From Octopus vulgaris (taxonomy: Eukaryota), in the NCBI GenBank assembly GCA_951406725.2, contig OX597828.1, forward strand, positions 73,718,001-73,782,000: a stretch of 64,000 nt of DNA. Direction: 5' to 3'. Shown one piece after another: positions 21,922 through 43,146 of this stretch. Both the position numbers and the translations under genes were made by a program. Every line of letters begins with the position of its first letter. Within the stretch, counting starts at the first letter, position 1. A model generated the notes under the pieces. That model saw only the letters and a list, made by a program, of their open reading frames with translations, did no database searches and was not told the origin of the DNA.

Positions 21922-22445
21922 CATACATGTACATACATACATATACATATATACACACACACATACATACACATATACACATACACACACATACACATAT
22001 ACATGCGTACCCATACACACACACACGCGCGCGCATCCATATATACACATAAGTACACACATGCGTAAAAGTATACATATATCTATACATATGCTTACAC
22101 CTACACACACACACGCGCCGCCTTATGTTCATATACTTACATGCATACTCAAAAAATAAATAATAAAATATATATACGTGCAGTTATTCATATACATACA
22201 TGCATACTCAAAAAATAAATAATAAATATTAAGTATATATACGTGCAGTTACCTATTATACAGACGGATACATACATATAAATTTACACATATATATATA
22301 TATATATATATACATACCTACACATATGTACATATACATACACACATACATAACTCTACGTACATGCATATACATAAACACACGAGCGTACACGTATATG
22401 TACATATACACATACACACACATACATACATACATATACATACAC

Positions 22446-22479
<34 letters not shown>

Positions 22480-22482
22480 ATA

Positions 22483-22535
<53 letters not shown>

Positions 22536-22666
22536 ATGTATATGTATGTATGTATGTGTGTGTATGTGTATGTGTATATGTACATATACGTTTACGCTCG
22601 TGTGTTTATGTATATGTAGGTACGTAGAGTTATGTATGTGTGTATGTATATGTACATACGTATAGG

Positions 22667-22712
<46 letters not shown>

Positions 22713-23075
22713 CATACATGTACATACATACATATACATATATACACACACACATACATACACATATACACATACACACACATACACATATACATGCGTA
22801 CCCATACACACACACACACGCGCGCATCCATATATACACATAAGTACACACATGCGTAAAAGTATACATATATCTATACATATGTTTACATACACACACA
22901 CACACGCGCCTCCTTATGTTCATATACTTACATGCATACTCAAAAATAAATAATAAAATATATATACGTGCAGTTATTCATATACATATATGCATACTCA
23001 AAAAATAAATAATAAATATTAAGTATATATACGTGCAGTTACCTATTATACAGACGGATACATACATATAAATTT

Positions 23076-23116
<41 letters not shown>

Positions 23117-23180
23117 CCTACACATATGTACATATACACATACACATACACACACAAGCATACATACATATACATACACA

Positions 23181-23216
<36 letters not shown>

Positions 23217-23225
23217 CATATATAT

Positions 23226-23271
<46 letters not shown>

Positions 23272-23402
23272 ATGTATATGTATGTATGTATGTGTGTGTA
23301 TGTGTATGTGTATATGTACATATACGTGTACGCTCGTGTGTTTATGTATATGTAGGTACGTAGAGTTATGTATGTGTGTATGTATATGTACATATGTGTA
23401 GG

Positions 23403-23459
<57 letters not shown>

Positions 23460-23823
23460 AAATTTATATGTATGTATCCGTCTGTATAATAGGTTACTGC
23501 ACGTATATATACTTAATATTTATTATTTATTTTTTGAGTATGCATATATGTATATGAATAACTGCACGTATATATATTTTATTATTTATTTTTTGAGTAT
23601 GCATGTAAGTATATGAACATAAGGAGGCGCGTGTGTGTGTGTGTAGGTGTAAGCATATGTATAGATATATGTATACTTTTACGCATGTGTGTACTTATGT
23701 GTATATATGGATGCGCGCGTGTGTGTGTGTATGGGTACGCATGTATATGTGTATGTGTGTGTATGTGTATATGTGTATGTATGTGTGTGTGTATATATGT
23801 ATATGTATGTATGTACATGTATG

Positions 23824-23861
<38 letters not shown>

Positions 23862-23998
23862 TATATATATATATGTGTATGTGTATATGTATGTATATGT
23901 ATGTGTATGTATGCGCGTATATGTATGTATATGTATATGTGTGGGTGTGTGTATGTGTATATATGTATGTATGTATGGGTGTATGTATGTATATATAC

Positions 23999-24034
<36 letters not shown>

Positions 24035-24435
24035 TTGTATGTAGGTGTATATGTATGTGTGTATATATATTTATTGGTGTATATGTATAGACTAGTCTTC
24101 TAAGCGTGTAGACATGAATCTGTAGGTACGCGTACGTATGTGTATATATGTGAATGTATGTAGATGTATGTATGTATGAATATAACGCGTGCGTGCGTGT
24201 ATGTGTATGAGTGTACGAATGAGTGAGTGTGCGTGCTAATGAGTGTGCGTGCGTGAGTGAGTGCTTGTGTTCAAGTAGAAGGATAAATGGACTTGCTGTC
24301 GTAGCCAAGATGCTTGTGACCAACGGTCAAAGATAACAAAAGTAATAAATGAAGATAATAAAATTAAAATTAGGGAATGGGTTTGTATTTGTATGTATAT
24401 GTGTGTATGTGTAGGTATGTATAGGTACACATATG

Positions 24436-24450
<15 letters not shown>
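21275..24450. repeat. 3.2 kb nested palindrome
   Basis: About 21275-22470 is the inverse of about 23250-24450. The centre holds a further inverted and a direct partial copy. Confidence 0.9.
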
Positions 24451-24478
<28 letters not shown>

Positions 24479-24632
24479 GTATATAGGGACTTGTGTGTGC
24501 ATGTGTGTATGTGGATATGTGTGTGTATGTGTGTATGTGTATGTGTGTGTATGTATATAATTTTGTGTGTATATGTATGTGTGGTCGTGTGTGTATATAT
24601 ACGTGTGTGTGTAAATGTATATGCATATATAT

Positions 24633-24670
<38 letters not shown>

Positions 24671-24774
24671 GTGTATGTATATATATATGTATATATATAT
24701 GTGTGTGTGTGTATGTATGTGTGTATGTATATGTGTGTGTGTGTATATATATATACATATGTGTATATGTATAA

Positions 24775-25119
24775 GTGAGAATCTCCTTATTTACTTAAAA
24801 CTCTATTCTTCTTCTATATATTTTTTTATTCTTTTATTTATTCTTTTATCTAATTTACCACTGACTCCTTGACCACTCCCCCAAGTAAGATAATTTTGCG
24901 CTATACCTACCCCCAAAAAGTCCCCCCACCACCCCTTTAAACCTGCCTAAATGTATAAATGCCAATACAATTCTTGTTAACTAGCTTCCTGATGATTTCT
25001 CTTGAATGAAACAGTTCTAGTCCTGTAGAAGCTCCTTCTATATAATAAATTAATTTTACTCTGCTATGTATTGAGTACCTTATTTACTGTGGTTAACCCT
25101 GAATCAACCCGGGACCTAC

Positions 25120-25122
<3 letters not shown>
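24775..25122 (+). mobile_element. pLTR/3' UTR fragment of the 56-57 kb PLE family
   Basis: 24983-25122 is near-identical to the reverse complement of about 57320-57459. Confidence 0.85.
24983..25033 (+). ncRNA. Type I hammerhead ribozyme, same family as 57408-57460
   Basis: agcttc-CTGATGA-tttc(tctt)gaat-GAAA-cag(ttctagtc)ctg-TA-gaagct; differs from the 57.4 kb copy only at the variable N7 position. Confidence 0.88.
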
Positions 25123-25159
<37 letters not shown>

Positions 25160-25229
25160 GTGTATGTATGTAGGAATACATATAGAGTGACAGAGGGAGG
25201 ACAAGGGAGCAAGACAAACTGCCAGTAGA

Positions 25230-25531
<302 letters not shown>

Positions 25532-26300
25532 TGTGCACCTGTCGAGGTGGGAACCAGACGTAGTTGGCCTTAGAAAGGTAAAGAAAAAGGACAATGATAC
25601 CGGAAGGGAGAAAGGGCGAGAGGAAGACAGACTAAGAGATAGATAATGTGGTAGGGTGTCAGGTTGAGAGAAAAAATGTGAGGGAATGAGGGAAGAAATG
25701 GCGGCAGAAGAAGTAGGATTGTGTAAAAGTAACGACTAATTACGGTAACCTCTCAATAAGGTAATTAGTTTTAGAAGTTCTCATAATTAATCTTGGTGAT
25801 AAGAACATTTTCTATAAATTAGCATGTGACGTAATCGTGTATATCGTCAAAGGTTTTAATGAACTTTAGGAAAATAATGGGAAAAAAAATCTGCAAACCT
25901 TTTATAAACCACCGCAATGAAACATCATGGCAAATCTGAATTTTGAATTTAGAAAGTATGATTCTCACACGAAATGTAATTAAAGTTTTTCTCTCTGATA
26001 ATATTTATCTCCCTGATTGAGAAGGAGTACATGTGCAGAAACTGAGTTTCACAATCCTCATGTTAACTAGGTTCAAATTTGACACGTATCTTCGATCGAC
26101 CCCATAGACATTTTTTACGCTTTATCCTTTACTTGTTTCAGTCATTAGACTGCGGCCATGCTAGAGCCAACGCTGGGGCATCACCTCAGAGGATTTTACT
26201 CGAACGAATCGACCCCAGTGCCCGTTTCCCTTTTAAGTCTAAAATTAATTAGTATTATTATCGTTTTATTGTTGTTATTATTATTATTATTTTATTATTG

Positions 26301-26341
<41 letters not shown>

Positions 26342-26715
26342 TTTTTTTTTGTTTTTTTGTCATCGTTAAGAGGACTCCTTCCCAATACGATATATCGATC
26401 TACCAAGATCTCAGCAGCCTCTCATTCTGTTATGCTTGATTACTAAGATGATTGATCGAGTATTTTAATGAAGCTAGAGATCTTCAGTTTGTTTAGTAAT
26501 TGTTTTTTTATTTATTTTTATTTTGTAATGATTGTGTAGCGTTTAAATAATTATTAGGATATTAATGAAGTATCCATCTCTTCAACTTTTCATAGGTTGA
26601 GCAGATTGAACGAAGATGATTTCTAAAAGCATATAGTGGTAGCATACGTAAAGTTAGACGAAGAAATAGATATGACGAATATAATATACTTACGTGGTAA
26701 AATTATAGGAAGAAA

Positions 26716-26873
26716 CAGGGGTGGCTGTGTGGTTAGTAGCTTACTTATCAACCACATGGTTCCGGGTTCAGTCCCACTGCGGGGCACTTTGGGCAAGTGT
26801 CTTCTACTATAGCCTCGGTCCGACCAAAGCATTGTGAGTGGATTTGATAGACAGAAACTGAAAGAAACCCGTC

Positions 26874-26920
<47 letters not shown>

Positions 26921-27152
26921 TGTGTGTATATGTTTGTGTGTCTGTGTTTATCACCCCTCCCCAACATCGCTTGACAACTGATGGTGGTGAGTTTACGTCC
27001 CAGTAACCTAGCAGTTCGGCAAAAGAGACTGATCGAATAAGTACCAGGCTTACAAAGAATAAGTCCTAGGGTCGATTTGCTCGACAAAAAGGCGGTGCTC
27101 CAGCATGGCCATAGTCAAATTACTGAAACAAGTAACTGAGTAAAGAGTAAAG
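26716..27152 (+). mobile_element. SINE family B
   Basis: Homologous to 20584-20975. Confidence 0.9.
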
Positions 27153-27798
27153 AGTACACCGTTACAGTAAGTATAAAGCTTAGGAAAAACGTAAAGTTAA
27201 AGGAAGATTTTTTTAAAAAATAGTTATATGACAGAAATACTAATAAATTATTAAGACAGTAGTTTCCATACAGCCACTGTACGTTTCCACACACACACAT
27301 AACCTTGAAACGTCTCAATACCCAAAGACTATTTACTCTTGAACGACCACTTCCCATATCAGCCACTTCCCAGCGAGAAGCAAATTAAATACTTCCAATC
27401 CATCTTTAAAACAAACAAACAAATAAGTAAACAAACAAATAAAAAATAAACAAATGAATAAAAAGATAAATAAATTAAAAAATAAAGACTGAAAGCAACA
27501 ACTCGTGGAATATCTTCTTGTTCTAAAATTAAGCAAATCTCAGAGAATATTGAAAGAAGACATTACTTCAACTAATCATTTCTTTGTTAAAAATGCATAA
27601 AATGTGACATTTTAGCAGGTTGATGGTTTAATAACCACTTTCACAACAACAACAACAACAACATAAGCAGTAACAACAACAAGAATACCAACAACAACGA
27701 CATCGACGATGGCGATGACGATGATGGCGACGAATGGCGAAACAAAATTGAAAACCATCGTTTACACATTACAGTTGAACAGTCTATTGCTTGGACAC

Positions 27799-27865
<67 letters not shown>

Positions 27866-28115
27866 CTCACGTACACACAACTAAATTATACACCCACATG
27901 TACACATACACCCACATATGTATACCTACATAATTCTCTCGCTCTCTCTCTCTCTCTCTCTGTATATGTGTATATGTATGTATTGTTGTTTATGAATAAT
28001 GAATTTGTATTCTGCCAACGTTTAGACTCACTCCTCAGATTAATGTAAAATTGTTTTTATCATAACTTAACATAAAAGCAAACATTAATATCTGTGTGTG
28101 TGTGTGTGTGTATAC

Positions 28116-28147
<32 letters not shown>

Positions 28148-28203
28148 CGGTAGCTACATATATATATATATATACACACACACATATCTATCGTTACATA
28201 TAT

Positions 28204-28250
<47 letters not shown>

Positions 28251-28586
28251 TATTGGCAGATATATGAATATATATATATATATATATGAAGATAGACACA
28301 CAGAAATATACACATGTGTCTGTGTTTGTGTGAGTGTGTGTGTAGGCAAGAGGTTGTATGAAGTTACAGATATATGCTTACATATCGAGACGCAAAAATT
28401 GTACGGAGTCCGAAACAAAAGTCTCGACTTGGTTTTTAGGCGTTGCCATCGGCAACCAAAACTTGGAGCGATGCTTCGGGCAACGAAATAAGTTTCCAGG
28501 GAACTTCATGAGTATTTTTATTATATTTAATCTATAACAATTTTAAAAAGGAAATTACCAAATTCTATTTTAAGCGAATACTAGTC

Positions 28587-28752
28587 AGCAGGAGTGACAC
28601 TGTGTGATAAGAAGCCTTCTTTATAATCATATAGCTCCGAGTTCGGGCCTGCTGCGTGGCACCTTGGGTAAGTGACTTCCACTATAGCCTCAGGCCGACC
28701 AAACTCCTGAGAGTGAATTTGGTAGACAGAAACTAAAAGAAGCCTGTCGTAT
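28587..28752 (+). mobile_element. SINE family B, 5' half
   Basis: Homologous to the head and CORE-like part. Confidence 0.8.
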
Positions 28753-28780
28753 TTATACGTATATATATACATAAATATAT

Positions 28781-28854
<74 letters not shown>

Positions 28855-28856
28855 GA

Positions 28857-28894
<38 letters not shown>

Positions 28895-28979
28895 AATATA
28901 GCAGCAAAATTTAGGAACGGCCATGTGTGTATTGATTAATTATATACAAATATATATATATATATACAAATATAAATAG

Positions 28980-29033
<54 letters not shown>

Positions 29034-29085
29034 ACAAATATACATATATATATACATTGATTAAACCTCACCAAGTTAAATATGT

Positions 29086-29155
29086 AAACCACCTGAAGAA
29101 TGACTGTAACTCGAAAATTTTAAGAATTGAACAGCCATGAAACGATCCTAGTGTT
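29086..29155 (+). ncRNA. Hammerhead with extended stem II, in insert 29057-29280
   Basis: cac-CTGAAGA-atgactgt...acagccat-GAAA-cgatcc-TA-gtg. Helix III is one substitution from the palindrome ACGATCGT. Confidence 0.7.
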
Positions 29156-29274
29156 ATATTAATTATCTTTTTTAATAAGTTTGATATATATTTAAATAAT
29201 ATAAATTAATTAATCTTATGTATTGGCTTAAGTTTTTCATCGTATGATTTGCCTAATAGTGGTTTTATCTCTAA

Positions 29275-29313
<39 letters not shown>

Positions 29314-29324
29314 AATATATATGT

Positions 29325-29434
<110 letters not shown>

Positions 29435-29637
29435 ACAAATATATATATATATATATATATAGATAAGAAAGTTTGTTTGGTAAAGCACGTGGGTGAATAT
29501 ATAAGAAAATAGTAAAGTGTGAAAAAACGACAGAAGGCTTAAATGTTAAAAAATATATATATTTGTGTCAAAATGTCTGGAGAATATTGGAAACATTTTT
29601 TTCCTTTCCTTAAAATGACATAATTTTAAAATTTTTA

Positions 29638-29677
29638 AAGAAATTACCGGTTTCGCGTGTAGCTTTTCAAATTTCTT
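29638..29677 (-). ncRNA. Hammerhead ribozyme, inverted copy of 31963-32002
   Basis: Exact reverse complement of the 31963-32002 motif. Confidence 0.85.
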
Positions 29678-29848
29678 GTGACGTTATGTTTATATTGCAT
29701 GGAGTTATCGTTGTATTTATTTTCAGGAGATTTCTAAATAAGGGGAGGTAGTGAGTGATTTCTTCCGGTGTAAGGGAGATAATCGCTTAAATTTTTTTTC
29801 CTTTTCCCTTGTTCATTTCTCTGTGTCAGTATGTTCGGATGGTTTTTC

Positions 29849-31510
29849 CCTTTCCCTTGTTAATTTCTCTGTGTCAGTATGTTCGGATGGTTGAGTCTGG
29901 GTTTGTACTTTTCAATGAAGAATGTTTCCTTGTTCAGTCTCATTTGTGTTTATGATCCGAAAGCACATTGGTAAAATGGGAAGATTAAAAATTGTGGCAG
30001 TAGTTGCTTTGCGCATTTCTCAATGTGCTCACTAAAAGGTATCATTCACTAAAAGGTATCATTCTATATTCTGGGAATGCAATCTGTTGCATGAACCCAC
30101 GTAGTCTTGGTGGCAGCCCGAGCATTTAATGACATAAATTATGTTTTCAGAGGCACAAGTAAAGTTAGATTTGATCTTGAATTTCTGTCCCTCTTTAAAG
30201 AAGAATTCTGATCCTTCCTATAGGTTAGGACATGTTGCACAGTTCGATCTACCACATTTTTTTACTTTTGCATCCGTAATTTTAGAAGACAATTTTGCCT
30301 TTGTGAGAATCTTTTTAAGTGATTTAGGCTGTTTGTAGCTTTTAATGATTTGGTGTATGTTTAGAATTTCCTTTAATATTGGGTTTTTATGAAGTATTGG
30401 TAAATTCTGGGTGATGATGGTGAAGGCTTCTTTGTTTCTGGGGTTGTATGTAGATATGTAAGGTAGTATTTTCGGGGAAGGTGTGTTGTTGTGTTGAACT
30501 TTTCTTAAAGTTTCTATGTTGATTTCTGTTGCACGTCTGATCCCATCCTCTATGAGTTGAGCTGGGTAATGTCTGTCAATTAGGTTGTTTTTTAGTTCTT
30601 GCAGTCTAAAGTTCCTGGTATTTTGTTCTGACACTATTGTGCATATCCTTCTTGTAAGGTTGAAGGGGATGTTTGTTTTAGTGTGTCTTGGGTGGCATGA
30701 ATTAAAAAGAAGGTATTGTTTGGCGTCTGTGGCTTTGTAAAAAATGTCTGTTTCTATTTTAAGGTTAATTTTTTTAATTAGTATATCCAAGAACGGGAGC
30801 TCCTTTTGGTTGTATTCCATTGTGAACTGTATATTTGGGTTTATGCTGTTCAATAGGTTTTTAAATTTTAGGAGTTTATCTATGTTTTCATTCCAGAGAA
30901 TGAAACAATCGTCTAGGAATCGTTTCCAATTCTCTTTTATGTATTGAGAGAGGGAGTTTCCAAAGATTGATAGAGATTCCTGGTAAATGATTATTTCCAT
31001 GTATCCCATTGTTAAGTTCGCAATGACTGGTGCTGCCCTTGTACCCATAGCAATTCCGGATTTTTGACGGTAAAATGTATTGTCAAACATGAAGTGGTTA
31101 TTGTGTAGGATGAATTCAATTGATTTAGTAATGAATTCCTTACTGATCCTTTTTGGTATTTCTTCCGGAAATTGGTCTAACCAGAACTGTATTGCCTCCA
31201 GTCCATAATTGTGAGGTATACTGGTATACAAGTTGACTACATCAAATGAAACCAGGATTGTTTCTTCCTTGGTTTTTTTTGGAAGGTGGTTTAACATATC
31301 TAAGTCATCTCTGATATGGCTATCGATATGTTTAAGGAAGGGTTTCAGGAGGATGTCCATAAGTAGACTTAGTCTGTGTGTTTCACAGGTTGGGCCAGCT
31401 ACAATGGGTCGTAGTTTTAGGTCCCCCGAATTAGGTGTGTGTATGTATGTCTTTGGTGATTTTTTAATGGTTTCATTTATAATTTGACTTTTATGAATTT
31501 TTGGCAGACC
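29849..31510 (-). pseudogene. PLE reverse transcriptase, Cys-rich linker and disrupted GIY-YIG endonuclease
   Basis: Motifs GLPKIHK, LRPIVAG, LVSFDVVNLYTSIP, GIAMGTRAAP, WKRFLDDCF and linker CGRSNCATC. After an in-frame TAG (30218-30220) it reads EGSEFFFK...NIIYVIKCSGCHQDYVG, then has a ~40-nt deletion and a 17-nt duplication. Confidence 0.93.
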
Positions 31511-31779
31511 AAGACTACGTGGGTTCCACGGGACTATCACTCAGGCGTAGATGCACGCTGCATCGACAACAGATTGCATTCCCAGAATATAGAATGATAC
31601 CTTTTAGTGAGCACATTGAGAAATGCGCAAAGCAACTACTACCACAATTTTTAATCTTCCCATTTTACCAATGTGCTTTCGGATCATCAACACAAATGAG
31701 ACTGAACAAGGAAACATTCTTCATTGAAAAGTACAAACCCAGACTCAACCATCCGAACATACTGACACAGAGAAATTAA
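31508..31779 (+). pseudogene. C-terminal half of the GIY-YIG endonuclease inside the inverted pLTR copy
   Basis: QDYVGSTGLSLRRRCTLHRQQI...SEHIEKC...RLNKETFFIEKYKPRLN; retains the segment deleted from the minus-strand copy. Confidence 0.9.
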
Positions 31780-31962
31780 CAAGGGAAAGGGAAAAACCAT
31801 CCGAACATACTGACACAGAGAAATGAACAAGGGAAAAGGAAAAAAAATTTTAAGCGATTATCTCCCTTACACCGGAAGAAATCACTCACTACCTCCCCTT
31901 ATTTAGAAATCTCCTGAAAATAAATACAACGATAACTCCATGCAATATAAACATAACGTCAC

Positions 31963-32002
31963 AAGAAATTTGAAAAGCTACACGCGAAACCGGTAATTTC
32001 TT
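31963..32002 (+). ncRNA. Minimal type I hammerhead ribozyme, U3-A8 core variant, in the PLE pLTR
   Basis: aagaaat-TTGAAAA-gc(tacac)gc-GAAA-ccgg-TA-atttctt: 7-bp stem I and palindromic ACCGGT at helix III. Confidence 0.85.
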
Positions 32003-32171
32003 TAAAAATTTTAAAATTATGTCATTTTAAGGAAAGGAAAAAATGTTTCCAATATTCTCCAGACATTTTGACACAAATATATATATTTTTTAACATTTAA
32101 GCCTTCTGTCGTTTTTTCACACTTTACTATTTTCTTATATATATATATATATGTATGTATGTATGTATGCA

Positions 32172-32360
32172 TTTGTGGGTCTCTGTTTGTCTCCCCACCA
32201 TCGCTTAACAAGCGATGTTGGTGTGTTTACGTCCCTGTAAACTAGCGGTTCGGCAACATAAACCGAGCTTACAAAAAATAAGTTTTTGGGAGCGGATTTA
32301 TTCGACTAAAGGCGCAGCTCCAACATGGCCGCAGTCAAGTGGCTGAATCCAGTAAAAGAG
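32172..32360 (+). mobile_element. SINE family B, 3' half
   Basis: Homologous to the 3' part; complements the 5' half at 28587-28752. Confidence 0.8.
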
Positions 32361-32934
32361 TATGCATTTTAACTGCTTGCTTATGTTTTTGTATTCCTAT
32401 ATATGTACGTGCTGTATGTTATGTATATATATGTAGGCATAGACACACCCGCACGGGCACACAGGTATTACATCCGGTCACTTTTAATGCTACTTGCAAC
32501 ATGTATCGCAGTATCCCCTGCTCCATGAACGGATCATCAGTGGCAAAACTAGCGACGTAGGAAGCCGTTGGGATATTTTGCAGGACGAAAATAAAACTTG
32601 CCAAAGGTTAAGTGGCCTCAGTAGATTCAATGACCATTCAACATTTGGGAGTGGAAGACACACTAGTCTTTATTTAGACATCTCTTTAGGGGAAAGAACT
32701 TTCGAAATATCGATCACCACATTGCGAAGTTGTAAATCGCACATTTGGTTGTGTCTTGACTATTTGGCTTTCTAAGTGAGAGCCATAGCGGCATTGTTGT
32801 TAACTAAATCTCAGCATAATCATTGCTTACAGCCGTTGTCATTTACGTCAAGGATCAGATAATGTTTCAGTGATGGCCAAACTAGCTTACAAGTTGACAG
32901 ACACTATTATTTGCTATATCTAAATCTTGCGAGA

Positions 32935-33268
32935 TATGTGAGTGTGCGTATGTGATTGCGTGTATGTGGGTGTGCATGTGTGCGTATGTGATTGTGTGTA
33001 TGTGTGTGTGCATGTGTGCGTGTTTGTTTGCGTGTATGTGAGTGTGCGTATGTGATTGCGTGTATGTGGATGTGCATGTGTGCGTATGTGGTTGCGTGTA
33101 TGTGGGTGTGCATGTGTGAGTGTGTGTTTGCGTGTATGTGTGTGTGCATATGTGCGTGTTTGTTTGCGTGTATGTGTGTGTGCGTGTGTGAGTGTGTGTT
33201 TGCGTGTATGTGTGTGTGCATGTGTGAGTGTGTGTTTGCGTGTATGTCTGTGTGCATGTGTGCATGTA
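32935..33268. repeat. ~36-bp TG-rich minisatellite
   Basis: Repeated gtgtgcatgtgtg...ttgcgtgtatgt. Confidence 0.8.
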
Positions 33269-33311
33269 TAAACTGTAATTAAAGTTTGACTCAGGTCCAT
33301 TAGACTCAAGC

Positions 33312-33414
33312 ATTTGTGGGTTCGTGGGACGACCCCTATCTCCTCAGATATCTTGACAAAATACGTCATCTCGCGATATCTGACGGGATAGGTTCGTTCT
33401 CCGAGCCCACAAAT
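33312..33414 (+). other. Imperfect ~45-bp stem-loop in unique sequence
   Basis: atttgtgggttcg...tcagatatc pairs with gatatctga...cgagcccacaaat. Confidence 0.75.
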
Positions 33415-33599
33415 CCACAAGTGGTATGGAGCTGAGTCACACTGTTATTCAAAATATAGGTAACTCGAACCAAATGTGTTGAGTTTCACACTTTGACTTC
33501 ATATGCGTGAGAGAGAGAGAGAGAGAGAGAGAGATAGTATGTGCATGTGCATGTGTATGTGTGTCTGTGTGTGTCTGTGTGTGTATGTATGTGTGCTGT

Positions 33600-33657
<58 letters not shown>

Positions 33658-34303
33658 CGCATAAATTTTTCGACATTTTAATTTTAAATCTTTGGAATGC
33701 AGCCTCACTGCTGAAGCATCTTTAGACGTTCTGGATGATGTCTGCTACATATTCCATCGCTCTTTTACTTATCGGATCTCTTCGTTGAGAAGCCTAACCT
33801 CAACAGCTTTGGTATTTAGTGGGTCCACACAATGGAAAGGATTATGTTCTATCACGAAATATATGAAACTAGAAGGGACATAACAGCTTTTGTAATATTG
33901 TTATACCTATGATATGACGGTATCTGCTATACTTTCCATTCGCAACCTCAGATAAAATCACCTTCTAAAATACAACTCCATTACTAAATAATTTTTATAT
34001 CATTATAAAACCTACATTAGCTGACATCAGATTTATGATATATATTTTATATTACCTTTGATTTTGCGTGAGTATACAAAGTTAAAATAAACGGTGACTC
34101 AAGAGGCCTGATTCAATTAACAGGTATGACAATATATTGTGTTAGCAAAATGTAATCTAAACCATATGTTATCTATCTACGCTTGCGTGTATATCTATAT
34201 GCGGATGTAAGTATATGTATACACATGTACATGGATATGTGTGTATATTTATGGGTGGTATATACATATATATATAATTATATGCATATATAGCGATAGA
34301 TGA

Positions 34304-34340
<37 letters not shown>

Positions 34341-34353
34341 TATATAGATAGAT

Positions 34354-34516
<163 letters not shown>

Positions 34517-34864
34517 GTGACAGACAAACCGACAGGCAAGCAGAGAGACAGACAGACTGATAGACAAACATGAAAACAGACAGGCAGACAGATAGACAAA
34601 CAGGCAAATAGACAGACAAATAGATACATACATACATTCATACATACATAGGTAGATAGATAGACAGGTAGACAGATTACTAGATTTAATTTAATCCACA
34701 AACTGTTAGTTCTGTATCACAAGATTTCAATATGTAGCCATTGAACCATACATCTGGTTTTCTTAGACTATTTTCTATCCTCTGCTCCCAAATACATTTG
34801 CTGTGTTCGTCCTTCTGACCTTTGATGTTTCTGTATCTATTATTTTCGATCTGCCAAAACATAC

Positions 34865-34977
<113 letters not shown>

Positions 34978-35316
34978 CAAACAGATTAAGCCAAGGCAGA
35001 AAATCCTAAAATAATTTTATCATGAAATACATTTTGTAAAGGTTAGTATACGTTTCAGTCCTTTCGACGTTTTTAACTAAGAGTATAACAAGAACAACAA
35101 TTAAATTGAAGAAAAAATAAAATGTTTTGTAAATATTTCAATAGTCTTCTAAAGGTAGGACATTTACCTTTTTTTTTTTCAGCCTCTCTCTCTCGCTTTT
35201 CCTTTGTGAAGGCTATGCATCTCATTATGTTCAACCGTTTTTTCTTACGCATTTTTCTCTCTCCGTGTTTTTTTCTTTGTTTTCTTCGTTCTCCCTCCAT
35301 TTTTGTCTTCTCAAAA

Positions 35317-35352
35317 TTTTCTGTCGAAGAACGTAGTCTCGTAACGTCAAAG
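35317..35352 (+). ncRNA. Degenerate minimal hammerhead, same family as 15602
   Basis: tttt-CTGTCGA-agaacgtagtctc-GTAA-cg-TC-aaag; the downstream tail resembles that of the 15.5 kb insert. Confidence 0.45.
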
Positions 35353-35454
35353 GCTTTTCCATTTTTTCCCAGTGTTAAAATAATACACCTGTTTATTATT
35401 CCCTCACCTGTTTTTGTCTTTAGTTTTCTGTAAATTTGAAATATTAAATATAAA

Positions 35455-35501
<47 letters not shown>

Positions 35502-35565
35502 ATAAATCTTTAAAATGTTTTAGCCCGAAGGCCGCGGCCATGCTGGATATATATATTAAATATAT

Positions 35566-35605
<40 letters not shown>

Positions 35606-35610
<5 letters not shown>

Positions 35611-36505
35611 ATATTTCGGAATGGTCATATTGCCAGTTTAGCCAATAAAAACACACGCACTATATATTTGGTGTTATTTTGCTTCAGTGATATTTATTTT
35701 TTACATTAATCTTAATCTTATTTCGGCCAAAGTTCTTTCGTCACACTCCTGTGACCGCATCAGTGGTCCTTTGTTTTCTTCTCACTTACTTGTGTCTCTC
35801 CTTACTAACCGTCAGCCATTTTGTATTTCTATTGTATGTCTTCATTTGCGCATGCTTATATCTCTATGTGCGTCTATGTTTATTTAGTGTGTGGGGGGGA
35901 TGCCTGTAATATTTGTATCTTCTGGTTATATACATTCTTGTAATTTGTATTTTGTTTTTGTTGTTGTTGCTTTTGTTCTAATTTTGTTCATGTGTTTACA
36001 TCCACCCATTATTATCATTACATATGCTTGTATGTATGTATAACAACAATATTAGTAATAATAATAATAAATCTAATCGAAAAAAAAAATATATATATAT
36101 ACATATACATATATATATATACATACATATACATATACATATACATACATATATACACACATACATACACATATAGATATTCATTTCTATTTCTTTAATT
36201 ACCTGTGTATTTATTATGTTTGCAGGATCCACTATTGTCATATGTTGTGGTGTGCGCTATTGCTCCATTCTAGTTTTCTATTCAGGCTAGGTTTATTTTC
36301 TATTATATGTGTAGCTTCTGTAATTTGTCTAATTGTTGCATCTGTTCTATGTGTGGACAATATCTTAATCTCTATGTTATTGATTGATCCCCCGTGTTCT
36401 TGTTCGGCGTGTTGGTACAGAATCGATGAGCTTTTACCTTCCTTGAGTTGTCTCCAATGTTCATTCACCCGCTCACCAATGCTTCTTGCAGTTTCCCTAC
36501 GTATG
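35606..36505 (-). mobile_element. 5'-truncated PLE: GIY-YIG C-terminal half plus 3' UTR with hammerhead-like motif
   Basis: YV(G)ETARSIGERVNEHW...SILYQHAEQEH...RQITEATHIIENKPSLNRKLEW at 36238-36503 (one frameshift). Linkage of this remnant to the UTR is inferred. Confidence 0.75.
35725..35769 (-). ncRNA. Hammerhead-like motif (CUGAUGC variant) in a PLE 3' UTR
   Basis: ggacca-CTGATGC-g-gtcac(aggagt)gtgac-GAAA-gaac-TT-tggcc, downstream of a GIY-YIG remnant. Confidence 0.55.
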
Positions 36506-36767
36506 TTACTGTCTTGTTACTGCATCGTCCCTCTATACATCTTATACTATAGACCACATTTCTGGCTTCACATAAAAAATCTTGCACAACAAATATTTAA
36601 ACGTATATATATATATATATATGTATGTATATATTAAATATATATATATATCAAATATTACTAGTTCCTTTAGACGAAATTTTTGCACTGTGTTCCTGCA
36701 ACCAAGAATTCTAATTAGCCGTTAATGTCTTTTATAATCTTTTATCTTTTACTTGTTTCACTCATTA

Positions 36768-36831
<64 letters not shown>

Positions 36832-37255
36832 ATCTCTCTCTCTCTTTCTTTCTCTCTCCCTCTCGCTCTCTCCATTACCAGAAGATCGGAGATTAAATTT
36901 TCACGCTGTCTATGAACTGCCAGTCTCAGTGAATATTATATTTAACTAATAGCGGCCAATCTCCTCTGGGAAATATAGCAATCAGCAAGGACCAACTGCT
37001 CCACGTGACCTAAAACAGCCAATGGTTATCAGATTTCCATAGAAGTTGTGAAAGTTTTGCTGATTTATAATCAGGCATTCGAGTGATCAGGAGAATGCAA
37101 CTGACATTATTTCCAATTTTGGATATCGCAAGTTTGAAAATACCCATCCATCCATCCATCATCCATACATACATACATATATACATACACTCATAGACAG
37201 ATAAGTGCACGCATGCATATATACATATACATATATATATATATATATGTGTATG

Positions 37256-37297
<42 letters not shown>

Positions 37298-37425
37298 CGG
37301 AGAAAAGAATCGTATTGCCACGAAGGAGGAAATATAGAAAAATTTGTTTGAGGGTTTGAAAATAAGGGTGAATCTCGAAACGGGAAGTCATTTTTAAATA
37401 CTGTGATAGGTTTTATTTATTCAAA

Positions 37426-37465
37426 TATCAAACCGGTTTCGACAATTTTTTGCTCATCAACGGTA
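37426..37465 (-). ncRNA. Degenerate hammerhead
   Basis: taccg-TTGATGA-gcaaaaaattgtc-GAAA-ccgg-TT-tgata, next to a TA tract. Confidence 0.45.
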
Positions 37466-37483
37466 AAAATAAGTGGTTCTCTC

Positions 37484-37539
<56 letters not shown>

Positions 37540-37767
37540 GAGTGTGTGTGTAATGTTTATTCAATGCTATTTCATAGCGGTGGTTACCATTAATAGCCGA
37601 CGAGTATGTATCGTAGCTCTTCGCTCCGACAGTTAAAACTCTGAGTACTATAATGACAACCTTTTACTGTTTGTTCTAAATTATAACATATATAAATACT
37701 CCTCTCTTTCTCTAATATCAAGGTCTCATTCTACTTTTGTTACTTTTTATTATACACACACACACAC

Positions 37768-37819
<52 letters not shown>

Positions 37820-37822
<3 letters not shown>

Positions 37823-38000
37823 CCTCATGGGACTAAACACAGAGGGGACAAACAGAGGGATTAAGTCGATTACATCGACTCCAGTGCGTAACTGGTACTT
37901 ATTTAATCGACTCCGAAAGGATGAAAGGCAAAGTCGACCCCGGCAGACGAAGTACCTCTGAGCATCTTGTCGGCGTGCTAACGATTCTGCCAGCTCGCCG
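37820..38000 (-). mobile_element. SINE family A, internally deleted
   Basis: Homologous to the 8174-8406 copy. Confidence 0.85.
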
Positions 38001-38091
38001 TTTTTGTGTACATGCATACATACATACATACATATATATGCGTGTGTGTGTGTGTGTGTGTACACAGACACACACAAACATATATATATAT

Positions 38092-38130
<39 letters not shown>

Positions 38131-39439
38131 AGCCATACGTGTGTGCGTGTGTTGAAATCGCCACGTGTCTTTAAACTTCAACTTTAGTAGATTTGGTGTA
38201 AGACGCTCTGATGGTTTGTTTCTATTAGCGATACATCGTGTCTGATATAATTTTCTGGCCTTCAACTTTTATCTCCTCTGAGATATTCCATCTCACTTGT
38301 ATACAATTTTTACCAGAAAATTATCAATGTGACGTTAACATGTGTGTTTGCCTGTTAGATATAAAGTCTTAGCGTTGACAGTTTCAATGCATATTTCGAT
38401 TGGGTTTTCTGATGTCGTGTCGCTAGAAATTCAATTTCGTCTGGGAGGCATTATTAAGTTATGTTAGATTTCTATTTTTAATTAGTAAGAACATTTCTGT
38501 TTCAACTGCTTGTAGCAATAAGTTGTTGGATGGATATCTACAGGATTCAAATACATATTTGCGATTATCATTTTCATTTTGTTTATCAAAGAAAGCATGC
38601 CTGCAACTTGAAATTTCTAATTAAATTTTTCGTCTCTTTTAATAATATCTCCAAAAATGATTCTGGCTGAGAGCATAGATAGTTTTTACAGACTTACATG
38701 TGAAGGACGTTAAGTGTTCTTACGCGTGAGTAGGATTACAGCAGCAGGCTTGAACATCTTGATACAGTAGCATAGGACAAGAATTATACATATAGAAATT
38801 TTAACTACTGAAATACGAAAATATAAATTTAAATACATTTCAAATGTGAAACAGAAGCGGCTCAATGCGCATGAACAATGTGGAACACACATACACAAGC
38901 TGTGTGTGTTGTTAGTCTGCGGGTCAGCTGCAGTTTTTAGGCGTAAGGGAATATATCCTCAACGCCCCTGGGTGTCACTTGCTTTCAGGTGTTTCTTACA
39001 CAATGCGCATAGAGAGTATATTTTCTTGCGCCCAAAGCCGCAGCCGATCCACACACTAACGACACACCTTGTGTTTGTGCGTTCGATTTTGTTTAAATAC
39101 AATTATTTACATATAAATTCATGCAGTAAATTTTCTACACGTGTCTGGCTTTGACTGGTGGCCATATTATTGCTTCTAAATAAATTGAATGCTAGAAACA
39201 TTCTAATACTCGGAAACGGAAAAATAGGTAAGAAAATATTATATGGTATAAACATCTACATAGATTTAATGTTCATTCGAATGTACAGGGGTTTCTGTAA
39301 GTCTTATAAATTTCTTATTTGACAATCGGTATCTTCCTGGACGAAAAATACTCCTCCAGTACTGTTCTGACATCTTGCGAACTCATGGAAAGCGAACCTC
39401 CACCAACTATTCTGCCTTTATGTCTGTGCACACCTTTTA

Positions 39440-39664
39440 ATACCAATGTATGACAGAAGGTGTGCAAATCCAACGGAGGCGTTAAAAGACATCTTATAAT
39501 CCACAAAAATCAAATCTTATCTGCAGCTTCAAATCGGATATGCAATCTATGTGGATGGCTTTTCAAAACATTGTCTAGTTCAAAAAGCTACATAAGATGC
39601 CGTGATGGTTTAAAGGTGCAGGTAAAGGAGGTGGTCAAACTCTGTATAAGGAGTAGACAAACAC

Positions 39665-39666
<2 letters not shown>
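39440..39666 (+). mobile_element. Degenerate double C2H2-like remnant, possibly the 3' end of an RTE-type LINE
   Basis: NV*QKVCKSNGGVKRHLIIH...CNLCGWLFKTLSSSKSYIR, ending directly in a CA/TA microsatellite. Confidence 0.4.
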
Positions 39667-39726
<60 letters not shown>

Positions 39727-39820
39727 ATCCCAAAATGAACAAAGAGAAAACACAACAACGCGAGGACGTGGAATAAATACAGTGTTATTGGACGCTCAGG
39801 AAAGGAAAGAAAGAAGGAGG

Positions 39821-39855
39821 ATTCGACGTTTCGAGCGGAGCTCTTCGTCAGAAAT
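39821..39855 (-). ncRNA. Minimal hammerhead in insert 39722-39918
   Basis: attt-CTGACGA-a-gagc(tcc)gctc-GAAA-cg-TC-gaat, with palindromic ACGT; insert flanked by (TA)n. Confidence 0.75.
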
Positions 39856-39915
39856 ATAGAAAATGTCCAAAGAAGGGAAGACGGAGAAAGAAAATCGCCA
39901 ACGATACACACGCGG

Positions 39916-39966
<51 letters not shown>

Positions 39967-40631
39967 TAATATTCTTTGCTTTGTATTTTTCTTTTTTTTT
40001 CTCTTCTCACTGCGTTGGAATTCAAAATATTCAGTATCTTTATATACACGCCTTTCAATGCAGCTCTATTTATGTAATATATACATCCACAGATAGTTTC
40101 ACACACATCCACATAGACACAAAGACTTGACCTCTACACAACTACATGTTTATATAAGTTTTAAAAGAATTATTTGCTTTTCTGTTCTCGATTTATATTG
40201 AAGTGTAGTGTTTTAAGATATAAAACTATTTCCTTCTTAAGTGGTAACAAATATATCTTTATAAATCTCTCTTTATGCATTAAGTTATTATTTCTGTATA
40301 TTTTTCAATTAGCTTCTGGTTGATATTTTTCGTGTTTAATATCAAACGTCGGTCTAAGGAATAATTTTACATCGGCAGTTTTGTTTCTTTGTCTTTTTCT
40401 TTTTCTTTTTTGTTATCACTGCGTTGGAATTCAAAATGTTCAATATCTTTATAGAATGTGAAGTAGGTTTTAAGTTTTTACTTTTTAACTGAACGCATCA
40501 CTATCAGAGAAATACATGAATCTCAATGTGTCGACTCGGCCAGCTACAAGTAATAAGCAGAGGCCGGCTCGCGGCCATAAAACAATTGGGCTCTACACAC
40601 GCACACAAACGGACAGACAGACAGACAGACT

Positions 40632-40866
<235 letters not shown>

Positions 40867-40878
40867 TATTGGCCACAC

Positions 40879-41040
40879 AGGGCATCCCTGACGGTCCGAA
40901 CGTGCTATGTCGAAAGGTGTCGATAGATGTCCATTCACGCGAATTACCGAACGGATGCCTCTGTACAAGGCAGCTATCCAACCGCGGAAGACGGAACCGA
41001 AACCAGCTGCTATGAGAACAGCCTCCAAGTATCGGTGATC
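40879..41040 (-). mobile_element. L1/Tx1-like LINE RT internal fragment
   Basis: DHRYLEAVLIAAGFGSVFRGWIAALY...VRVNG-like...STPFDIARSDRQGCP (RT motif RQGCP). Confidence 0.75.
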
Positions 41041-41334
41041 TAAGTATTTTTGTCAGGGAACTGGATACTATTATGTAACACTTTGGGGAAAACTTTTACC
41101 ATAAACTCGAGAAAAAAGCTTCATCGCTGGTTGGTAAATCTTAATTGTCTTCTTCAAGCAATATTGTGGCGTTTATGATTCAACTCGGTGACCATTGACG
41201 TAAGAAATATTATCAATGGAAATATTCTACTTTGGAACTGAAAAATTCTTTTCCAAGTACCACATCATACATTTATACATACATAAATGCATACATACAT
41301 ACATACATATATATATATATATACATATACACAC

Positions 41335-41412
<78 letters not shown>

Positions 41413-41489
41413 ATATAATTTCCATCAACAGGCAATCAAACTGTATTGATATGTATACACTCATACACATACACACACACACATACATA

Positions 41490-41543
<54 letters not shown>

Positions 41544-41554
41544 CATACATATAT

Positions 41555-41585
<31 letters not shown>

Positions 41586-43146
41586 GTTTCCATCAGCAGA
41601 CTATCAAACCGTATTGATTAGACACTTTTGTGTCTTCAGAAATTCGTATTTGATGAAAGAGTGAAACTATTTCTTCAATATTGCCATTACAAACAAGTTA
41701 AGTAAAAAAAAAAAGGAAAAAGGGGAAAAAAAAACAAGTTTATTTCTGCCGTTTCTCTCCATTACTGATAACTGCTCTTAAATATTTTCTGATGAACCAA
41801 AATCTGATATCTCCTGAAAAACACTTAAATGGGTTTATATCAATACATCTTATATCGATACAATTACTTCCTTCCATTATGCATTTCTACAACCTTCATG
41901 AATGCTTTGTCAATGAAACATGGTCTTCTCGCCCACTGAACATGATAATGAATGAGAATTCTTGTGCATGTGGCAGATACGCGTTCTACTTTTAAGATGT
42001 TTATAGAAATCGTAAACTTTTTAACGATTTCTTACAAATCGCTCGCATAAACACACACATTCATACACAACCTTACTATAAGTCTGATATTTATCTTCTT
42101 GTTCCTGGTATATCTGAAGTGCATGCTAAGAGTACGAATTCCTGATATTATAAATAACTTGCTGTACAATTTCTGGAAACATATTGAAAGCAATGAATGG
42201 GAAGAGATTACCACAAATCCAGGAATAACATACAAAGTTTACCAAATACACGCAACACCACATAAGCAAACGGCGTGTAATAAAGTGCACTTTTCAACGA
42301 GGCGTAGAGTACAAATCATTTGTGTTCGGACCAACATCAGACACAATATCAAGCTGTGCAAAAGCAGCGCATATTCCAACAAAAGAATAGAGTATGTTTT
42401 CTAGTTAAATCAATTGTGCATCTGTTACGATAACGCATTGTTCAATCTTATCTGCAGAACCTGACACTGAATCACAAAGATAATTAACAAGCATATCGCT
42501 TTATTTTACGAGTTCTTCTACCACTTCAGATCATGTATTTCTGAGCAGAAATCACCGCCGCCACGTATCCATGTTCTCCCAAAGTTACATGACGGTTTCC
42601 ACCACCACCACTACTACGGATGTGTTTCTAAAGAATTACAGCTGTAATTCTGAAAGATAATGCGATTCAATGAAATATTTCAGAACGTTATTTTCTAAAA
42701 TTCGAACTTTCGAGGGATGGAAGCAAGTCATGTAAGAGATTGTTGGAATATACATACATTAAAATATATATATATATATTAATATATATATATACATACA
42801 TTAATATATATACAGATGTATATACACACATATATAAGTATATACATGTATACATATATATGTGTGTGTGTGTGTGTGTGTGAATATGAATATAGAATGA
42901 AGTGATGCGTATTTAACCATACATGTGTTTATATGTATATATACATACACCCACACATATATAAACACGCATACACCTATGTCTAAAGATGTTTCATATG
43001 CATATTCGAGCGTTTATGTGCACGTGTGTGTAATTTAAAAATGGACTCCTGGCAGAAACGCGCTGATGTTATATTAAGCTCAAAAGCGCCAATTACTTTT
43101 TCTGCGTTTCTCCCTCTCTCTCTCTCTCTCTCTTTCTGCCGCTCTA

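Follow-up and report, generated by a model that had tools for sequence, protein, structure and literature searches.

A minimal type I hammerhead motif with the published U3-A8 core in a Neptune-type Penelope-like element of Octopus vulgaris

Hammerheads with a U3-A8 pair have been described in several systems. The accessible part of Cervera & De la Pena (2014; PMC4209133) reports U3-A8 in the Cercyon Penelope-like elements of Schistosoma mansoni, with about 1,300 hits, and its supplement gives the core UUGAAAA letter for letter, along with a U3·G8 core in a Penelope hammerhead of Saccoglossus. According to the same source, the minimal Penelope hammerheads of metazoans are slow and cleave poorly even as dimers. 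Natural covariation from C3-G8 to U3-A8 was described in several hammerheads by Perreault et al. (2011; PMC3088659), whose accessible text also presents a 2-bp stem II as common and states that U3-A8 cores had already been shown to be active in vitro. A preliminary description of the locus studied here had read U3-A8 as a compensatory change in an active variant; novelty of the core is not supported, given that, as far as these accessible texts go, it has been in print for Penelope hammerheads since 2014 and for natural hammerheads since 2011.

In PAc, the hammerhead of a Poseidon element from Anolis, single and double mutants served to probe the 3-8 pair (Frangieh et al. 2024; PMC11167929). 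As far as the available sections of that study go, PAc cleaves in vitro, insertion in vitro persisted in ribozyme mutants of this lizard Penelope element, and the RNA-seq data contained no reads with an end at the cut site. Pairing of G17 with C3 is the presumed cause of the impairment by G17 in minimal hammerheads, and this trapping is overcome in tertiary-stabilised hammerheads (PMC3884650, partial text). The function of the hammerheads of Penelope-like elements is presented as an open question in the available parts of both PMC8557442 and PMC11167929. The former also terms the shrimp element MjPLE01 Neptune-like and describes a one-sided tail as typical of Penelope-like insertions.

The window, by which we mean the whole stretch of 64,000 nt that was analysed, carries a Penelope-like insertion with two hammerhead motifs and the following features:

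29462..32137, no strand: whole insertion, a Neptune-type Penelope-like element, 5'-truncated and with a 5' inversion (inverted pLTR arms), within a (TA)n tract
29462..29497, minus strand: 36-nt 'tail', at the left end only
29638..29677, minus strand: hammerhead motif, letter-identical second copy, in the 3' pLTR and in sense to the RT gene
29863..30047, minus strand: C-terminal part of the GIY-YIG endonuclease, beyond a short deletion and duplication
30092..31511, minus strand: part of ORF2 that covers RT, thumb and the CX4CX2C linker; its identity to an open copy is 99.4%, and 30218-30220 is a premature stop
31508..31776, plus strand: inverted copy of the C-terminal part of the endonuclease, where the right arm begins
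31963..32002, plus strand: minimal type I hammerhead motif of the right (inverted) arm

A 440-codon frame at 30218-31540 (minus strand) matched RVT_1 and carries the CX4CX2C linker at its end; a Pfam scan of 20 other long frames among the 78 of the window gave no match. An open reference copy elsewhere in the genome (L037) has 811 codons with DKG (at 183), FLDD and the linker CGRSNCATC (at 674), the last of which is also present in the window frame. Its Pfam matches were RVT_1, above the cut-off, and a weak GIY-YIG (E 0.088) at 712-751, and homologues carry PF00078 and PF01541. Compared with this reference, the window copy is 5'-truncated, its frame stops prematurely past the linker, its endonuclease has suffered a short deletion, and from 31508 on it holds a second, inverted copy of its 3' part; both of its insertion ends abut (TA)n. 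RT followed by a C-terminal GIY-YIG, a CX2-5CxxC linker, DKG, partial tandems, an inverted 5'-truncated copy, a one-sided tail and a (TA)n target were all found, and by these motifs, rather than by a tree with named references, the element is classified as a Neptune-type Penelope-like element.

The motif at 29638-29677 (minus strand) lies in the pLTR, in sense to the ORF and beyond the end of the endonuclease on the ORF strand. The two motif copies of the window sit as inverted, not direct, repeats, and 550 of the 589 aligned columns of the inverted arms are invariant. Since the frame is broken and both arms would pair together in any read-through transcript, the window copy is likely inert. 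Full units elsewhere in the genome form 3,996-nt tandems, in which the hammerhead lies about 210 nt upstream of the ORF1 start of the next unit.

Several further observations concern the coding region and its surroundings. Both arms carry a tandem duplication of 47 nt where the endonuclease frame ends (window 31748-31841), and the window region 22000-23900 holds repeats of about 790 nt, rich in microsatellites, in both direct and inverted orientation. In full-length elements (L032:2844-3015 on the minus strand, L033-L037, L088, L098, L100, L101, L216 and L219), ORF1 overlaps the RT-EN frame. This ORF1 runs for about 450 codons from its ATG and has no Pfam match, while the RT-EN frame has no ATG of its own at the overlap and lies in the -1 frame relative to ORF1. 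The overlap contains the slippery heptamer U UUU UUA, which is kept in family D (79% nucleotide identity) and in family E (54% protein identity); in L127, a change sits directly before it. A programmed -1 frameshift likely joins ORF1 to the RT-EN frame. In PMC8557442 (partial text), the legend of Fig. 1 gives a frameshifted ORF1 as an optional trait of certain Penelope types, and a literature search that mostly covered papers outside subscription returned none on a ribosomal frameshift in Neptune.

The motif of the right arm, with its core numbered by analogy with the canonical hammerhead core (PMC4209133, accessible part, and general knowledge), is composed as follows, all on the plus strand:

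31963-31969: 5' strand of stem I, AAGAAAU
31970..31976: core strand UUGAAAA, read as U3-U4-G5-A6-A7-A8-A9, with U3 at 31970 and A8 at 31975
31977..31985: stem II, GC-UACAC-GC, of 2 bp (G10.1-C11.1 and C-G) with a 5-nt loop
31986-31989: GAAA strand
31989..31994: palindromic stem III, A15.1-CCGG-U16.1, with CCGG at 31990-31993
31994-31995: U16.1 and A17
31995..31996: A17 and A1.1, with the predicted cut between them
31996-32002: 3' strand of stem I, AUUUCUU

This is the layout of a type I hammerhead, with three stems round the core, an open stem I and a palindrome as stem III. U4, G5, A6, A9, G12, A13, A14, the A15.1-U16.1 pair and the G10.1-C11.1 pair are canonical in the window motif and kept across families, and the Watson-Crick pair possible between positions 3 and 8 is U3-A8. 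G10.1 follows directly after A9 with no extra base, and the cleavage triplet GUA conforms to NUH, although its A17 is predicted to pair with U3. The loop of stem II varies from subfamily to subfamily. The sequence agrees with what had been reported for both pLTR copies, which are identical: UUGAAAA in place of CUGANGA, a 7-bp stem I, a 2-bp stem II and GAAA-CCGG-UA.

Standard searches do miss this motif, as the preliminary description had expected. The literal CUGANGA core strand is absent from it, UUGAAAA standing in its place, so that CUGANGA descriptors pass over it. Rfam gave no hammerhead match at 29550-32100 with E up to 10, nor any among the best 150 of 273 matches at 22000-42000 with E up to 5; the matches listed instead were microsatellite-driven miRNA matches and weak chance ones. 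The lack of an Rfam match and a monomer folding energy that is ordinary against shuffles (z -0.37) might be taken to mean that an A/T-rich stretch resembles a relaxed hammerhead pattern by chance. Such an energy is expected for a minimal motif, however, and a hammerhead descriptor requiring a stem I of at least 5 bp matched the window at 2 places and never matched in 200 shuffles. Chance is also countered by the position of the motif in a pLTR, a known place of such motifs, by the covariation of stems between families, and by backward-pattern controls: run backward, the family patterns gave 0 matches and the loose patterns 19-58, whereas the real matches number in the hundreds to thousands. 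We consider that these controls refute the chance explanation and give it almost no credence. Together with the features of the element, the descriptor result bears out the claim that a hammerhead motif lies in the pLTR of a Neptune-type element.

Exact copies of the core 30-mer number 674 in the 2.8-Gb genome, with 1 copy carrying another base at position 3 and 0 at position 8. The mean pairwise difference within the window's subfamily is 2.2% (31 copies picked by position), and it is mostly the youth of this subfamily that accounts for the conservation of U3-A8 within it. With singletons occurring at a rate of 0.004 per A/T site, sites 3 and 8 together should have shown about 5 changes; the observed number is 1. 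Conservation within the subfamily was rejected as a proof of selection: the copies are young, the patterns favour the least changed ones, and inserted copies are unselected. In four contig sets no other letter was found at 31970 or 31975, but these same sets also missed known loop variants, and the result therefore carries no weight.

The comparison between families reaches deeper. In family D, whose protein identity reaches 85-90% (in L093), UUGAAAA is kept and one A-U pair of stem I is replaced by G-C. At 54-57% protein identity, families E and F share the U3-A8 core and have unrelated stems I and II. The unpaired catalytic bases G5, A6, A9, G12, A13 and A14 are fixed in every subfamily and family seen. 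By this comparison, the U3-A8 core is old here, being common to families that are 54-57% identical in protein, and the conservation check proposed in the preliminary description thus had a positive outcome both within the subfamily and beyond it. Its interpretation as a whole stands for the identity of the hammerhead, the conservation of U3-A8 and the failure of standard searches, and not for novelty; the activity of the variant is putative.

Genome-wide counts under a loose pattern extended this picture to all four states of the 3-8 pair. U3-A8 was found in at least 2,623 places (backward control 37), with the window's lineage outside the pattern, C3-G8 in 424 (control 24), U3·G8 in 611 (control 58) and C3·A8 in 168 (control 19). 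The U3-A8 total is about 4,400, the sum of 2,623, the 674 exact copies and about 1,118 copies of the window's lineage, the last counted with position 3 left free. Matched 3-8 pairs dominate genome-wide, among copies that are non-independent, and U3-A8 exceeds C3-G8 about tenfold under this one pattern, which excludes an extra base after A9. Related hammerheads with C3-G8 or U3-A8 were also observed in retrozyme-like tandem repeats of about 359-362 nt (e.g. L038-L044, L052-L055, L071-L074 and L084-L085), and hammerheads resembling those of the repeats recur with U3·G8 and C3·A8. All four states of the 3-8 pair thus seem to have been amplified among these, forming a second natural series. In a 31-bp tandem array (G000:C5:125262556-125262895), many units fit the hammerhead core pattern with C3·A8.

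From 240 sampled loci we obtained a series of subfamilies, which we placed on a tree of the endonuclease end and the pLTR, with the ribozyme excised and the root on family D (52 rows, at most 6 per type, of the 134 that cover the region). The branching order begins with intact motifs with C17, continues with the loss of A1.1 and then divides into two branches. In the first, C17 changed to A and A1.1 was then regained, which produced the window's form, present in 39 of the 44 arms sampled by position. In the second, A8 changed to G, giving U3·G8, and part of this branch also changed C17 to A. A single group of all intact copies was rejected (AU p 1.6e-63; 43 rows, with L023 and L203p left out), and so was a single origin of A17 (AU p 0.003), indicating that the C17-to-A change occurred in parallel in the two branches. 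In an unrooted coding-only tree, the AU test of which included L203p, groups without A1.1 likewise separate the old from the new intact groups; this tree and the pLTR tree disagree weakly (85/86) on which group is sister to the window's subfamily. That the regained A came from the old intact subfamily by recombination was considered and is disfavoured, both by the bases just 3' of the motif, which match the derived lineages, and by the same nesting in the coding-only tree. Our literature searches, which were not aimed at that topic alone, found no paper on such a loss and regain. A search for C3U/G8A, the U3-G8 wobble and C3U rescue, again mostly among papers outside subscription, found none either.

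Across the genome, A1.1 is missing from 906 copies and present in 1,048, and 170 copies carry the uncompensated U3·G8 core. Copies within the U3·G8 subfamilies differ by 1.8% and 2.0%, versus 2.2% within the window's, so that these subfamilies are equally young. When the window's subfamily was compared with the damaged ones, the changes fixed in the RT-EN frame gave dN/dS values of 0.14, 0.13 and 0.08, which indicate purifying selection; the damaged forms were thus carried by working source elements. Changes private to the two U3·G8 groups look neutral (synonymous to non-synonymous 6:21 and 12:45), and one group offered too few copies for counting. In L203, a U3·G8 copy, the A was gained on one arm only, so that the insertion of this A may be an easy slip and not a selected repair. 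Other copies also vary between or around their arms: the two arms of L031 differ at positions 3 and 17, and L119/L120 and further pairs are very short inverted insertions with arms less than 100 nt apart that begin just 5' of the hammerhead.

Folding predictions place these changes at the junction of the motif. The designed monomer fold of the window motif is predicted at +3.1 kcal/mol, and the best homodimer fold is a double hammerhead joined via the palindromic ACCGGU, at -15.5 versus 2 x -4.0 kcal/mol. In these predictions stem III is palindromic and unstable, which favours the dimer, and the motif is predicted to fold only in that form. The predicted fold also lengthens stem I to 8 bp via a U3-A17 pair, which is absent from the earlier drawing of the motif; its probability in the predicted dimer is 0.71 for the window form versus 0.00 for the older C17 form. 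Among natural copies, in which loop II also differs, the predicted dimer energies are -12.1 (A1.1 lost, C17), -13.9 (A17) and -15.5 kcal/mol (A17 and A1.1). Forms without A1.1 lose the geometry of the cleavage site in their predicted dimers; a 6-bp stem I with one extra U is still possible for them, and they may cleave through it.

The U3-A17 pair has the same geometry as the G17-C3 trap (PMC3884650, partial text). Since the latter is overcome in tertiary-stabilised hammerheads, the trap posed by U3-A17 may be mild, and family E also combines U3 with A17, so that the combination is tolerated in at least two families. The window motif likely cleaves weakly at best. A mixed tandem was also observed at L098 (G000:C1:70848300-70856500), where an element of family E (54% protein identity) is followed at once, head to tail, by an element of a U3·G8 subfamily; the two different hammerheads are 96 nt apart and both have the ACCGGU palindrome, and a heterodimer could form.

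Based on these findings, we postulate that the 40 bases are probably a minimal type I hammerhead of a young Neptune-type element, with the published U3-A8 core, a fold predicted only as a dimer and likely weak cleavage, and that efficient cleavage was likely not needed for the spread of the element. The motif itself is an old, selected hammerhead with a U3-A8 core. In the mechanism that we propose, two motifs of one tandem transcript would pair via ACCGGU and exchange their stem I strands to form a double hammerhead. In the predicted active state U3 pairs with A8 and the cut falls 3' of A17, and in the window's subfamily U3 could alternatively pair with A17 and extend stem I. The ancestral role would have been the cutting of tandem read-through transcripts to unit-length RNA, presumably helpful but possible to bypass. 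Efficient cleavage is likely dispensable for spread because 906 copies lack A1.1, 170 carry U3·G8, and dN/dS is 0.08-0.14 on the connecting paths. This is supported by the in vitro insertion of the lizard ribozyme mutants (PMC11167929, partial text) and by the poor cleavage of metazoan minimal hammerheads (PMC4209133, partial text). Collectively, the data suggest that efficient cleavage can be lost without stopping transposition. A point on the other side is that the damaged lineage could have borrowed nothing, or something in trans, from other elements.

Selection on the motif is suggested by the regain of A1.1, by the parallel C17-to-A changes and by how deeply the core is conserved, and such selection is more in keeping with a function that is needed than with one that can be spared. 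A rather unlikely alternative is that the motif is an efficient ribozyme in which U3-A8 fully replaces C3-G8, that its cleavage is needed for processing of the element RNA, and that the odd sister forms are active through tolerated changes. The activity in vitro stated for U3-A8 hammerheads (PMC3088659, partial text), the unchanged core over families of 54-57% protein identity, the restoration of an intact junction in the subfamily with the most exact copies found, and the U3·G8 core of the Saccoglossus Penelope hammerhead (PMC4209133 supplement, as available) are all in keeping with it. Such a ribozyme would nevertheless have to cope with a U3-A17 pairing probability of 0.71 in its predicted dimer, a stem II of 2 bp, the slowness of published minimal Penelope hammerheads (PMC4209133, partial text), and 906 of 1,954 counted copies that lack A1.1 and the predicted cleavage-site geometry with it.

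More improbable still is a non-catalytic, hammerhead-derived element for pairing or protein binding, dimerising via ACCGGU and stem I, in which C17-to-A and the added A were selected for a longer helix. The predicted dimer energy does fall with every step after the loss, and the last step yields an 8-bp helix that occupies U3; in addition, the single Penelope element examined did not depend on cleavage for insertion in vitro, and its RNA-seq data held no reads that stop at the cut site (PMC11167929, partial text). Yet pairing alone does not require the fixed unpaired bases G5, A6, A9, G12, A13 and A14, and the energy differences are small and are predictions.

We tentatively propose, with less than even confidence, that the lineage records the breakage and repair of a ribozyme. 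A1.1 would have been lost and, in one branch, the 3-8 pair broken; both forms would have been transposed by the hundreds with a selected polymerase, and one branch would have rebuilt the junction in two steps, creating the U3-A17 self-trap. If so, the lineage offers a ready-made natural mutant series and a changed cleavage-triplet rule, with A17 disfavoured, for U3-A8 hammerheads. At least six natural, recently mobile alleles of one 40-nt motif are ordered by the tree from intact to damaged to repaired, and cleavage of this allelic series bears on whether elements with a dead ribozyme have ever moved in a real genome. Should the damaged forms fail to cleave, they would be in vivo evidence that the cleavage of Penelope hammerheads is dispensable yet weakly selected. 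The U3-A8 core, already known, carries little weight alone; CUGANGA patterns badly undercount hammerheads in some genomes.

Comparison with the known systems places the motif among them without an exact match to any one. As described in the accessible part of PMC4209133, the Cercyon hammerheads are likewise of type I, located in pLTRs and dependent on a dimer by design, with U3-A8. Their stem II is long (6-8 bp), their stem I is short, and one additional base separates 9 from 10.1. In the window motif, stem I has 7 bp and stem II 2 bp, the additional base is absent, stem III holds a 4-nt palindromic insert and position 17 is A; the motif thereby departs from the consensus of that source, with its extra base and long stem II. 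The Penelope hammerheads with a small palindromic helix III from the shrimp Marsupenaeus japonicus, mosquito and rotifer have a 4-nt palindromic insert as the window motif does, and the shrimp motif shares with it the direct succession of A9 and G10.1 and the A17; these motifs differ in having C3-G8 and a stem II of at least 4 bp (PMC4209133, accessible part). In the available text of Perreault et al. (2011; PMC3088659), U3-A8 is rare and found outside retroelement pLTRs, whereas here it is the majority under the pattern used. The PAc hammerhead also lies in a Penelope pLTR, but it has a C3-G8 core and belongs to the Poseidon clade (PMC11167929, partial text). As for the element, the Neptune clade of Craig et al. 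(2021; PMC8557442, accessible part) likewise shows a C-terminal GIY-YIG, the linker, DKG, an inverted 5'-truncated copy, a one-sided tail, (TA)n and a pLTR hammerhead.
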